A DNA stretch of 54,561 bases from Escherichia coli (GCF_003334785.1 NZ_QOWV01000022.1), one strand, 5' to 3'; shown: positions 34,131 to 43,433, counted from the stretch's first letter. Translations and numbers: made by a program. Notes: generated by a model from the sequence alone, not told the origin.

Positions 34131-35654
34131 ATGAACGACAAAATCAGTCAGGACACGATCAACAAAGCCCTGTGGGCCGCGTGTGATACGTTCCGTGGCA
34201 CCATCAGTGCTGATACCTATAAAGACTTTATCCTTACCATGCTGTTCCTCAAGTACATTTCAGATGTCTGGCAGGATCACTATGACGAATACAAAGAACA
34301 GTATGGCGATGCGCCGGAACTGATTGAAGCGATGATGGCCAACGAGCGTTTTGTACTGCCAAAAAGTGCCAGCTTTTATGCGCTGTACGAACGCCGCCAT
34401 GAGCCGGGTAACGGTGAGCGTATCGATCAGGCTCTGCATGCAATCGAAGAAGCCAACGGAACCAAACTGAAAGATGCCGGGAAAAGCGTGTTCCAGGATA
34501 TTTCGTTTAACACTGACCGCTTGGGTGAAGAAAAACAGAAGAACACCATCCTGCGTCAGTTGCTGGAAGACTTCGCCGGTGAAGATCTCAACCTGAAGCC
34601 AAGCCGTGTAGGTACGCTGGACGTTATCGGTAATGCCTACGAATATCTGATCAAAAACTTTGCCGCCAGCGGTGGGCAGAAAGCCGGGGAGTTCTATACC
34701 CCGCCGGAAGTTTCGGACCTGATTGCAGAACTGCTCGATCCGCAACCGGGTGATACCATCTGCGATCCAGCCTGTGGTTCCGGTTCATTATTGATGAAGT
34801 GTGGGCGTAAAATTGTCTCCGGGCATGATAGTCGTAACTATGCATTGTTCGGTCAGGAAGCGATCGGTTCTACGTGGTCGCTGGCGAAAATGAATATGTT
34901 CCTGCACGGGGAAGACAACCATAAAATCGAGTGGGGCGATACCATTCGTAACCCGAAGCTGCTCGATAAAAATGGCGACCTGATGCTGTTTGATATCGTG
35001 ACCGCTAACCCACCGTTCAGCCTCGATAAGTGGGGCCATGACGAGGCCGAGAACGATAAGTTTGGCCGTTTTCGTCGCGGTGTACCGCCGAAGACTAAAG
35101 GAGATTACGCTTTTATCTCGCATATGATCGAAACCCTGAAACCGGGAACTGGCCGTATGGGCGTAGTTGTGCCACACGGTGTGCTTTTCCGTGGCTCCAG
35201 CGAAGGTAAAATTCGCCAGAAACTGATCGACGAAAATTTGCTGGATGCGGTAATTGGTCTGCCGGAAAAACTGTTCTACGGTACGGGGATTCCGGCTGCG
35301 ATTCTGATTTTCAAAAAGCAGAAAGTTGATGACAAGGTGCTGTTTATCGATGCCAGCCGTGAATTCAAGGCAGGTAAAAACCAGAACCAGCTCAGCGCAG
35401 AAAACATCGAGAAAATCGTCAAGACCTACCGTGATGGCGATAACGTCGAGAAATACGCCTATCTTGCCAGCCTGAAAGAGATTCAGGACAACGATTACAA
35501 CCTTAATATTCCACGTTATGTTGATACTTTCGAGGAAGAAGACGAGATTGATTTACTGGTCGTGCGTGCTGAACGTGAGCAACTGAAGGTGGAACTGGCG
35601 AATCTGGAAACGGAGATGGCGGGTTATCTGAAGGAGTTGGGTTATGGTGCCTAA
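34131..35654 (+). CDS. hsdM: Type I restriction-modification system methyltransferase subunit
   Basis: 507 aa; AdoMet-binding DPACGSGSLL and catalytic NPPF (TANPPFS) of N6-adenine methyltransferases; followed by hsdS. Confidence 0.9.
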   Translation: MNDKISQDTINKALWAACDTFRGTISADTYKDFILTMLFLKYISDVWQDHYDEYKEQYGDAPELIEAMMANERFVLPKSASFYALYERRHEPGNGERIDQALHAIEEANGTKLKDAGKSVFQDISFNTDRLGEEKQKNTILRQLLEDFAGEDLNLKPSRVGTLDVIGNAYEYLIKNFAASGGQKAGEFYTPPEVSDLIAELLDPQPGDTICDPACGSGSLLMKCGRKIVSGHDSRNYALFGQEAIGSTWSLAKMNMFLHGEDNHKIEWGDTIRNPKLLDKNGDLMLFDIVTANPPFSLDKWGHDEAENDKFGRFRRGVPPKTKGDYAFISHMIETLKPGTGRMGVVVPHGVLFRGSSEGKIRQKLIDENLLDAVIGLPEKLFYGTGIPAAILIFKKQKVDDKVLFIDASREFKAGKNQNQLSAENIEKIVKTYRDGDNVEKYAYLASLKEIQDNDYNLNIPRYVDTFEEEDEIDLLVVRAEREQLKVELANLETEMAGYLKELGYGA

Positions 35655-36837
35655 GGGGTGGAGTGAAAGTTATCTTGGTGAAGTGGTTACATATAAAAAA
35701 GGCTATGCATTTAATTCATCATTATATGCAGAGGAAGGGATACGGATTGTTCGAATTTCGGACACAACTAGGGACTCCATCCATTCTGACAACCCTGTTT
35801 TTATTGCTGGCGGGAATGTCGAAGGTTTAGAGCAATACAGTCTTTTCGAAAACGATATAATACTCTCTACTGTGGGATCTCGACCACATTTACTGGACTC
35901 CATGGTTGGTAAAGCTGTAAAGGTTCCGCGCAGTGCACATAATAGCTTGCTTAATCAGAATCTTGTTAAACTCATACCGAAGAAAACAAAAATAACAAAT
36001 GAGTATCTTTTTAGCATGCTTAAAACAAAGGAATTTATACAATTCATCTCAAACTTGGTTCGTGGTAATGCAAACCAAGTCTCTATAACTTTGGCTGATC
36101 TTTTTAAATATAAATTCATCTTACCTTCCCTCCCCGAACAAAAGAAAATCGCCCAAATCCTGTCAACCTGGGATAAGGCGATTTCGGTGACGGAAAAGCT
36201 TCTCACCAACAGTCAGCAGCAGAAAAAAGCCCTGATGCAGCAATTACTTACCGGGAAGAAACGGTTGCTGGATGAGAATGGGGTGAGGTTTATCAAAAAA
36301 TGGGAAAAAACCACTTTAGGGGATATCGCAAAAATCACAACAGGTAGCTCTAATAGACAGGATTCAAGCTTGGATGGAAAGTATACTTTCTTTGACCGTT
36401 CTGAGGATATTAGAACTAGCAGTATTTATCTATTTGATGGAGAGGCAATTATAGTTCCTGGAGAAGGGCAGAGATTTGAACCAAAGTATTTCATTGGTAA
36501 ATTCGATCTTCACCAAAGAACCTACGCCATAATGGATTTTGCAAGCCATTCTGGGAGGTTTCTTTTCTACATGATTGATTATCTTAAAGTTTATTTTCTT
36601 AACCAAGCTGTGGGGTCAACTGTAAAGTCTTTACGACTTCCAATGTTTCAAAAAATGACCTTTGAAGCACCGGAAATTGAAGAACAACAAAAAATCGCCG
36701 CCGTCCTCTCCGCTGCCGATGCAGAAATCTCCACACTGGAGAAAAAACTCGCCTGCCTGAAGGGTGAGAAAAAAGCCCTGATGCAACAGCTGCTGACCGG
36801 TAAGCGTCGGGTGGTTGTTGATGTGGATGCCGCGTAA
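35644..36837 (+). CDS. hsdS: Type I restriction-modification system specificity subunit
   Basis: 397 aa; two target-recognition halves separated and followed by the conserved repeats KKALMQQLLTGKKRL and KKALMQQLLTGKRRV; start overlaps the hsdM end. Confidence 0.85.
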   Translation: MVPKGWSESYLGEVVTYKKGYAFNSSLYAEEGIRIVRISDTTRDSIHSDNPVFIAGGNVEGLEQYSLFENDIILSTVGSRPHLLDSMVGKAVKVPRSAHNSLLNQNLVKLIPKKTKITNEYLFSMLKTKEFIQFISNLVRGNANQVSITLADLFKYKFILPSLPEQKKIAQILSTWDKAISVTEKLLTNSQQQKKALMQQLLTGKKRLLDENGVRFIKKWEKTTLGDIAKITTGSSNRQDSSLDGKYTFFDRSEDIRTSSIYLFDGEAIIVPGEGQRFEPKYFIGKFDLHQRTYAIMDFASHSGRFLFYMIDYLKVYFLNQAVGSTVKSLRLPMFQKMTFEAPEIEEQQKIAAVLSAADAEISTLEKKLACLKGEKKALMQQLLTGKRRVVVDVDAA

Positions 36838-42681: not shown

Positions 42682-43433
42682 GTGAAAAAGAATCGCCATC
42701 AATGAAAGCGTTACGCATTGTCTATGGTGATGAGGTCATCGTCGTACAGTGTGTTCCGCGTCAGGTCGTAAAGGGCAGGGTGCTCATCAAGGTGCATCCG
42801 GACTGCCGGGTTGTGGCCTCTGTACCGCCTGAAACACCGGAGCACGAGGTATTGTCTGCGCTGAAAAAACGTGGGCGCTGGATATACCAGCAACTGCGTG
42901 ATTTCAGGGAGCAACAGATACACATTGTTCCGCGTCAGTATGTCAGCGGAGAAAGCCATTATTATCTCGGTAAGCAATATCAGTTGAAAGTGACAGAAGA
43001 CGCTACTGTGCCGCAACGAGTGAAAATGTTGCGTGGGCGTCTGGAAGTGACTGTCAGACACAAATCGGCAGAAAAGATTAAAGCCTTGCTGGCTGAATGG
43101 TATCGGGAACGTGCCAGAGATGTTTTTCAGCGCAGGCTTGATTTACTGATTCCGCAGACCCTTTGGGTCAGTGAGCGTCCTCCGATACGTCTGCGGGCGA
43201 TGCAAACGCAATGGGGCAACTGTTCAGCAAAAGGCTGTCTGACCCTGAATCCATGGCTGGTTAAGGCATCCTCAGAATGTATCGATTATGTTTTGCTACA
43301 TGAGTTATGCCATGTGGCTGAGCACAACCACAGCGAGGAGTTTTACCGTCTGATGGGGCAGGTTATGCCGGGCTGGGAAAAGGTTAAGAAGCGACTGGAT
43401 GGTATGGCTGGGATGTTGTTGGCAGATATGTAG
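42678..43433 (+). CDS. DUF45/YgjP-like zinc metallohydrolase (HExxH)
   Basis: 251 aa; HELCHVAEHNH near the C-terminus; overlaps the hsdR stop by 4 nt. Confidence 0.65.
   Translation: MSEKESPSMKALRIVYGDEVIVVQCVPRQVVKGRVLIKVHPDCRVVASVPPETPEHEVLSALKKRGRWIYQQLRDFREQQIHIVPRQYVSGESHYYLGKQYQLKVTEDATVPQRVKMLRGRLEVTVRHKSAEKIKALLAEWYRERARDVFQRRLDLLIPQTLWVSERPPIRLRAMQTQWGNCSAKGCLTLNPWLVKASSECIDYVLLHELCHVAEHNHSEEFYRLMGQVMPGWEKVKKRLDGMAGMLLADM

Follow-up and report, generated by a model that had tools for sequence, protein, structure and literature searches.

Between positions 34131 and 43433 of a 54,561-nucleotide (nt) stretch of Escherichia coli DNA (GCF_003334785.1 NZ_QOWV01000022.1; the whole stretch is called the window), a type I restriction-modification (RM) operon carries two additional genes between hsdS and hsdR, one encoding a YecA-like protein and the other a protein with a cold-shock domain (CSD). 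These embedded genes are two separately acquired cassettes and not one conserved insert. On balance, the RM operon is probably cargo of a mobile defence island at a tRNA-Leu gene, and the two independent accessory cassettes were probably nested in it at different times.

The locus consists of six open reading frames (ORFs) of one orientation on the plus strand, namely hsdM, hsdS, the YecA-like gene, the CSD gene, hsdR, and a gene for a YgjP-like metallopeptidase (Table 1). An earlier note on this DNA had proposed these identities and the common orientation, and both are borne out by the ORFs and their family matches. The same applies to its description of the gene boundaries as overlapping or closely spaced: overlaps of 11 nt, 1 nt (TAATG), and 4 nt (ATGA) are found at the hsdM/hsdS, hsdS/YecA-like, and hsdR/metallopeptidase junctions, respectively, and gaps of 22 nt and 69 nt separate the CSD gene from the YecA-like gene and from hsdR. 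Judging from this spacing, the six genes are presumably co-transcribed as an operon. A consensus scan for promoters and terminators was uninformative, with fewer promoter-like sites than in shuffled sequence, and the terminator scan returned no intergenic plus-strand terminators within the operon. The spacer between the CSD gene and hsdR contains a hairpin, and the fold of positions 39325-39400 (-21.1 kcal/mol, z = -2.78) is more stable than that of shuffled sequence. The hairpin has no T-run typical of an intrinsic terminator and was not reported by the terminator scan; it is kept only in part in the divergent copy of the locus on contig L031 (see below). RefSeq annotation of E. coli names all six genes in the same order, and the cassette recurs in other genera, which together show that the six-gene arrangement is not due to chance. 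All six genes are under purifying selection according to their ratios of nonsynonymous to synonymous divergence (dN/dS).

The sequence features expected of a type I RM system are all present. HsdM has an NPPF motif at residue 293 and matches the PADLOC model MTase_I (2.9e-132), HsdS is full length with two target-recognition halves, and HsdR combines a nuclease motif of the PD-(D/E)xK type (D155...E169-x-K171) with the superfamily 2 (SF2) translocase motifs GSGKS at residue 350 and DEGH at residue 455. All catalytic motifs are in place, and the RM operon is intact in sequence. The nearest solved relative of HsdR is EcoR124I HsdR, with an E-value of only 1e-32; it is the sole solved relative, and the attempted placement into one of the type I subfamilies (IA-IE) reached none. 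The dN/dS values are 0.02-0.03 for hsdM and 0.02-0.06 for hsdM and hsdR together. The variable part of the operon is hsdS, whose products share just 34-67% identity between loci that are otherwise near-identical. The metallopeptidase, which has weak WLM and SprT-like matches besides its Pfam family, is encoded after hsdR in every allele and in all three allelic states described below, and the ATGA overlap suggests that its translation is coupled to that of hsdR.

Table 1. Features of the locus, followed by features of the surrounding island (positions in the window; aa, amino acids; IS, insertion sequence)
Feature	Position	Strand	Length	Basis or remark
hsdM, type I N6-adenine methyltransferase subunit	34131-35654	+	507 aa	TIGR00497 1.3e-84, above cutoff
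hsdS, specificity subunit	35644-36837	+	397 aa	PADLOC Specificity_I 1.2e-104, residues 1-394
YecA/AscA paralogue	36837-37520	+	227 aa	NCBIfam PRK10396, 347 bits vs cutoff 149 (equivalog)
CSD cassette (indel unit)	37521-39414	+		Stretch missing from YecA-only alleles
CSD protein	37543-39327	+	594 aa	RefSeq-consistent ATG start; longest ORF 37465-39327
Hairpin in CSD-hsdR spacer	39345-39364	+		Perfect 8-bp, GTATGTCC-GTAA-GGACATAC
hsdR, restriction/translocase subunit	39397-42681	+	1094 aa	TIGR00348 2.5e-138; PADLOC REase_I 1374 bits
YgjP-like (DUF45, 'M48 family') metallopeptidase	42678-43433	+		Pfam PF01863 5.4e-58; HELCH (HExxH) at residue 208
glyW-cysT-leuZ tRNA cluster	18529-18830			
Tyrosine recombinase 1	19864-21111	+		
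WYL-like regulator	24400-25302	-		
ORF	26057-28720	-	887 aa	Weak family-B DNA polymerase Pfam match (0.0097)
Tyrosine recombinase 2	29675-30811	-		
ORF directly upstream of hsdM (first of two)	30955-32085	-	376 aa	GC content of both ORFs ~0.35-0.36
ORF directly upstream of hsdM (second of two)	32847-33827	-	326 aa	
IS1-like transposase N-terminus and integrase-core remnant	43491-44066			Between metallopeptidase and DUF262 genes
Two adjacent DUF262/GmrSD-like genes	44088-45542, 45535-47577			PADLOC HEC-06-like, 1e-30 to 1e-33
Hhe, full length	47752-53181			PADLOC Hhe, 4070 bits
IS3-family transposase ORF	53721-54329			Near window end

Separate histories of the two embedded genes

The limits of the CSD cassette were determined by blastn comparison of the window with the related loci L007, L008, and L029, in which homology ends at position 37520 and resumes at position 39415. 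With respect to the YecA-only alleles, homology stops at the stop codon of the YecA-like gene and restarts 18 nt inside hsdR. The unit in between comprises the CSD ORF, preceded by a 22-nt leader that has a ribosome-binding site of its own and followed by the 69-nt spacer, as well as six replaced hsdR codons, so that hsdR begins with GTG-GAT-AAG-CAC-TAC-CAA, including a GTG start, instead of ATG-AAC-CAG-ACG-TAC-ACG. From these breakpoints it follows that the cassette brought along its own leader, its spacer, and the first six codons of hsdR.

Three alleles of the operon were found. When E. coli genomes were searched with the insert only (36837-39327), 199 genomes had both embedded genes, and about 220 matched the YecA-like gene alone with 81-87% nucleotide identity. 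In the YecA-only allele (L007 and L008), which resides in the same island, the order is hsdM-hsdS-YecA-like-hsdR-peptidase with 52 nt between the YecA-like gene and hsdR. The third allele (L029 and L030) has neither insert, and hsdR follows 21 nt after hsdS. The earlier note had raised the possibility that the embedded pair is one conserved insert; the existence of the YecA-only and the empty allele at the same island site speaks against this.

Composition and divergence also separate the two genes. The GC content of hsdM, the YecA-like gene, hsdR, and the peptidase gene is 0.50-0.52, that of hsdS and the CSD gene 0.41-0.42 (0.41 for hsdS, compared with about 0.50 in the genes adjoining it), and that of the whole CSD cassette 0.42. 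The CSD cassette is thus compositionally foreign, and the YecA-like gene matches hsdM and hsdR. Synonymous divergence (dS) from L008 has a mosaic pattern, with values of 0.86 for the YecA-like gene and 0.47 for hsdM, and of 0.11 for hsdR and 0.07 for the peptidase gene. The YecA-like gene therefore appears to be an old resident of the operon that tracks the hsdM-hsdS side. A sequencing-run contig, L031, has the six-gene cassette as well, on a backbone that is highly divergent, and its CSD protein is about 90% identical. In comparison with this backbone, dS is 0.32 for the CSD gene, in contrast to 0.8-1.8 for the YecA-like gene, hsdR, and the peptidase gene, which indicates that the CSD cassette has spread recently over old, diverged backbones.

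This spread extends beyond E. coli, in which at least 80% of the 9.3-kb stretch is present in 191 of 5,426 complete genomes. The same cassette, with CSD proteins that are 91-98% identical, is present in Klebsiella michiganensis, Buttiauxella, Franconibacter, Citrobacter braakii, and a metagenome-assembled genome (MAG) of Enterobacter. In addition, the CSD gene is found at 95-99% protein identity on 132 plasmids, 129 of them from Klebsiella and 128 conjugative; on one plasmid inspected, the full six-gene cassette lies beside the F-type tra region.

High-identity co-inheritance of the two embedded genes in the 199 E. coli genomes, the 132 plasmids, and several other genera, together with their adjacency across a 22-nt gap, would also fit an obligate two-gene system, for example a chaperone or sensor paired with a nucleic-acid-binding effector. 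This is highly unlikely given that about 220 E. coli genomes have the YecA-like gene without the CSD gene at the same site, that no CSD homologue with 59% identity or less has a YecA-like neighbour within 10 kb, and that both GC content (0.52 vs. 0.42) and dS differ between the two genes.

It is extremely improbable that the insert is a decayed remnant or consists of chance ORFs. Such decay does occur in related genomes: some contain IS-truncated versions in which the last 210-270 nt of the CSD gene remain upstream of hsdR, and L014 and L028 have a YecA-like gene that seems to be disrupted. Both ORFs of the window, in contrast, are full length and encode proteins with 90-98% identity to copies in other genera or on sequencing-run contigs. 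Their dN/dS values of 0.08-0.21 indicate purifying selection, by which a decayed remnant, the alternative named in the earlier note, is refuted for the window.

The YecA-like gene

The YecA-like protein has the domain architecture of YecA, with an N-terminal UPF0149 domain (Pfam 3.9e-29) and a C-terminal SecA-like metal-binding SEC-C domain (1.8e-7). It matches the PADLOC model PDC-S12 from end to end (1.7e-97; residues 6-227 against positions 3-218 of 218). Its tail, GRNDPCxCGSGKKFKKCCLH, is near-identical to the metal-binding motif of the housekeeping protein, and every conserved block is kept. With 55-59% identity to housekeeping YecA from E. coli, Salmonella, Yersinia, Pantoea, and Cronobacter, it is not the housekeeping orthologue, which is located next to tyrP; in related genomes, the true yecA lies outside the island. 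As a side observation, the island with the YecA paralogue integrates beside the host's own yecA (window 36837-37520 compared with L008 15950-16615), which is either a coincidence or a hint of the past capture of a flanking host gene. The dN/dS of the YecA-like gene is 0.08-0.15.

Relatives with 71-89% identity lie directly after hsdS or an hsdS fragment in all four further contexts. A further relative, at 77% identity, is part of a full six-gene cassette, and a copy from Providencia directly follows an hsdS fragment truncated by an IS. In every context of this small sample, relatives with at least 71% identity follow hsdS. Because its closest relatives (71-100% identity) were found only in this position, the YecA-like protein, a diverged copy of a housekeeping holdase chaperone, would seem to work with the RM proteins. 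One possibility is that it holds an Hsd subunit or delivers it; another is that it serves as an adaptor tethered to ribosomes, through which RM status or phage proteins are coupled to a response. For housekeeping YecA (AscA), a function as a holdase chaperone has been reported, with SecB and ribosomes bound by its C-terminal metal-binding domain (bioRxiv 10.1101/2020.07.21.215244).

A defence role of this family has been suggested independently. The genes behind the PDC models were collected, by a 'guilt-by-embedding' approach, from inside BREX, DISARM, or type I RM systems (Payne et al. 2024, bioRxiv 10.1101/2024.01.29.577857). The supplementary tables of this preprint, searched for PDC-S12, YecA, PF03695, and CSD, yielded no entry, and no report of anti-phage testing of PDC-S12 was found in the searched literature.

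Carriage of the YecA-like gene by phages was suggested by a match to phrog_24700 (2.8e-88) and was rejected as an artefact. Phage records matched only through yecA genes of 55-58% identity, which lie at the very ends of six Escherichia phage entries; they come from the host, were swept into these records, and do not belong to the embedded clade.

The CSD protein and its genomic company

The ATG start codon of the CSD gene at position 37543, which corresponds to the start of RefSeq homologues, is preceded by a GGAAGGGGG ribosome-binding site. The encoded protein consists of a cold-shock domain (residues ~10-81), a helical region (~87-376), and a Cys-rich domain (~377-594). The cold-shock domain was recognized with the Pfam CSD model (2.4e-4 with the single sequence) and with a family profile compared with cold-shock proteins in the PDB (5e-9). 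An alignment of 32 homologues showed that this N-terminal domain is conserved, that the helical middle part is poorly conserved, and that the C-terminal ~230 residues are strongly conserved. This C-terminal region has 15 invariant Cys and two invariant His residues, and E385, D448, N458, R459, R484, R507, D540, and R542 are invariant as well. Despite its cold-shock OB-fold domain, the protein is not a small (~70 aa) single-domain protein like CspA, and the RefSeq name 'cold-shock protein' is misleading, as 513 of the 594 residues lie outside the CSD. The dN/dS of the gene is 0.16-0.21.

No match to the CSD protein was obtained among the NCBIfam, PADLOC v2.0.0, and PHROG models or in 50,697 phage records, and its C-terminal domain has no Pfam family and no solved fold relative. 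A profile of the C-terminal domain nevertheless retrieved 828 representative clusters among 1.84 billion proteins, ranging from Proteobacteria to Bacteroidota. Many of these relatives have 700-1,280 residues, and in several the N-terminus bears a single CSD or two of them. The distant relatives yielded only further CSDs with the NCBIfam and PADLOC models, and Pfam searches of two of them gave no other domain, so that no informative domain swap was obtained.

The genomic company of the family differs from that of the YecA-like gene. Among CSD homologues with at most 59% identity, none has a YecA-like gene or a type I RM gene within 8-10 kb, and their loci share no neighbouring gene except BREX genes. 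In L004 and L018, the homologue directly follows brxL of a BREX system, and in L023, a MAG of Pseudohongiella, it lies directly upstream of pglZ-brxL of another one. In the latter case (L023, 51-731), the ORF upstream of the CSD gene has a vWA-like DxSGS motif, and its end overlaps with the CSD gene, which is apparently embedded within the BREX system. Another homologue, in Vibrio (L002), is flanked by transfer genes of a conjugative element and lies in the variable region of an ICE. Others are located beside Mokosh MkoA/MkoB (L006), about 3 kb upstream of Avs4 and about 5 kb downstream of a type IV DinG-like helicase (L021), and near PDC-M26A and a weak Leo-like match (L022); the one in L024 has NERD/UvrD and DruE-like helicases nearby. 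These contexts, from many unrelated bacteria, are consistent with an autonomous defence gene.

The CSD protein would accordingly be a candidate for a self-contained, single-protein defence that acts independently of YecA and of the RM complex. Its cold-shock domain would bind single-stranded RNA or DNA of phages, and the conserved multi-zinc C-terminal domain would be the part that engages nucleic acids or acts as effector. The effector role is a guess, since this domain has neither a catalytic motif nor a fold relative. Nesting in the operon would provide co-expression with restriction and thereby a layered defence. A more far-reaching proposal is put forward only tentatively. In it, the CSD protein founds a widespread single-protein antiviral family that senses single-stranded phage nucleic acid with the cold-shock domain and acts through the multi-zinc domain, and the YecA paralogue is a ribosome- and SecB-tethered chaperone turned into a guardian of the type I enzyme, so that three defences of different mechanism share one transcript.

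Several points weigh against the reading of nested accessory defence cassettes. For the YecA-like protein, identity to housekeeping YecA is as high as that among cross-genus orthologues of YecA themselves, and a homologue of the same length (227 aa) with 69% identity occurs in a non-RM context; it could have been captured from the host as a chaperone and play no part in defence. As to the CSD protein, the defence-related contexts amount to eight of about 12 independent loci, which is a small sample and is uncontrolled against the background rate, and no recognizable catalytic motif was found in its C-terminal domain. No experiments on either embedded protein were found in the searched literature, nor was a characterization of YecA in connection with type I restriction or of CSD defence proteins of this architecture.

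The points concerning YecA, including the retention of all conserved blocks, would also suit a passenger or RM helper, that is, a captured host yecA gene whose product assists Hsd assembly or is simply tolerated, in which case only the CSD gene, if either, would be a defence gene. The integration of the island at tRNA-Leu between pgsA and yecA and the existence of an operon allele without the YecA-like gene point in the same direction. This explanation is nonetheless distinctly unlikely: the gene occupies a central position in the operon instead of an edge of the island and overlaps the stop codon of hsdS, purifying selection has kept it on backbones whose dS reaches 1.8, and its family was picked as a defence candidate in the independent embedding study cited above.

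Island context and likeness to known systems

The operon is located about 15 kb downstream of the glyW-cysT-leuZ tRNA cluster, and an Rfam scan of the window detected only these three tRNAs. The DUF262/GmrSD-like genes and Hhe downstream of the operon mark the window as a multi-system defence island. For the two ORFs directly upstream of hsdM, no NCBIfam or PADLOC match was obtained; they are annotated as 'hypothetical' in RefSeq and are kept next to the RM operon in related islands. The IS scars of the window are likewise conserved in related E. coli islands. Pipolins insert at tRNA-Leu between pgsA and yecA and often carry type I RM, PDC-S12, HEC-06, and Hhe (PMC11551731). The layout of the element fits that of published pipolins, in which case the 887-aa ORF would be a candidate for piPolB.

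Among known systems, the prr locus is the obvious comparison. Its gene order is prrA-D. The gene for the anticodon nuclease PrrC is embedded in the ecoprrI type I RM locus, a type IC system (review PMC12707154), and, as in the window, the accessory gene is co-oriented and nested between hsdS and hsdR. The likeness that the earlier note drew to prr holds for this slot. It does not extend to a family relationship, and the embedded proteins indeed differ from PrrC, as that note had also said: neither matches the PADLOC PrrC model or an NTPase or nuclease family, PrrC being composed of an ABC-type NTPase and an anticodon nuclease. Furthermore, two separable genes are present here instead of the single prrC, and the CSD protein occurs mostly outside RM loci, whereas PrrC is almost exclusively embedded in them. 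Ronin, which consists of an HsdMS decoy and RonA, is similar in that a locus derived from a type I system has an extra gene in tight linkage, which provides a second layer of defence. Unlike the present locus with its intact hsdR, Ronin has no hsdR and encodes a membrane protein of 61 aa, and no such small gene is found here.

These two systems provide the model for a guardian role, in which HsdMS(R) would restrain one or both embedded proteins until phage Ocr, ArdA, or Stp releases a toxic effector that causes abortive infection. The position in the prrC slot would suit such a role, as would the precedent of Ronin, in which a small HsdMS-linked effector can sense anti-restriction proteins. 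The finding of close YecA-like relatives only directly after hsdS in the contexts sampled, in one case after an hsdS fragment, and the divergence of the YecA-like gene along with the hsdM-hsdS side (dS from L008 of 0.86 and 0.47 against 0.11 for hsdR) are further points in its favour. Homology to PrrC or RonA is absent, however, and the YecA-like protein has no recognizable toxin domain and is related to chaperones. The CSD protein is encoded mostly without a type I RM system nearby and thus cannot generally depend on HsdMS; this RM-independent distribution argues against a PrrC-style dependence on the RM complex and makes a guardian role unlikely for this protein. For the YecA-like protein, a guardian role in the manner of PrrC or Ronin is possible. 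Taken as a whole, this explanation is considered unlikely.

Each embedded protein also has counterparts of its own. PDC-S12, which the YecA-like protein matches from end to end, belongs to the models built on genes embedded in defence systems; it is a single-gene candidate and does not include the CSD protein, for which PADLOC v2.0.0 has no model. Housekeeping YecA/AscA shares the architecture of UPF0149 and SEC-C domains, and the YecA-like protein scores above the NCBIfam equivalog cutoff; it differs in sequence and in location, as it is an additional copy that a mobile island carries within an RM operon. The CSD protein resembles the CSD effectors of type V retrons and the McrBC-like CSD fusions of CoCoNuT systems, in which the cold-shock OB fold likewise occurs in a defence context. 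In defence proteins, this fold is generally taken to bind RNA or single-stranded DNA, and the domain is found repeatedly, both in defence proteins predicted to target RNA and in the effectors of type V retrons. Distant members of the CSD family give weak matches, through the CSD, to PADLOC CSD_V and to the retron Se72 effector model. The CSD protein of the window matches neither of these two models, and no reverse transcriptase or McrBC genes were seen among the neighbours of its gene in the window.

The locus is thus not prr, as PrrC homology is lacking, not Ronin, as hsdR is present and RonA is not, and not a retron. The most fitting description is a locus of a familiar kind, namely a type I RM operon with nested defence candidates, that carries one uncatalogued candidate family. 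The arrangement itself is not previously unseen: it is annotated in hundreds of public genomes, and its YecA-like half has already been catalogued as PDC-S12. What appears to be uncatalogued is the candidate defence family of CSD/zinc-rich proteins, along with the natural series of three alleles.

Type I RM operons are now recognized as slots in which other defence genes nest. The allelic series at one chromosomal site, with no insert, with the YecA-like gene, or with both the YecA-like and the CSD gene, would make the contribution of each nested gene easy to test. Should neither embedded gene have a phenotype, the locus would be no more than an ordinary type I system that carries passengers. 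A YecA copy that does act together with the RM complex would link a ribosome-binding chaperone module to the control of restriction. If the CSD/zinc-rich protein is antiviral, it would represent a broad family with a fold that has no solved relative and that is missed by current defence-finding tools.

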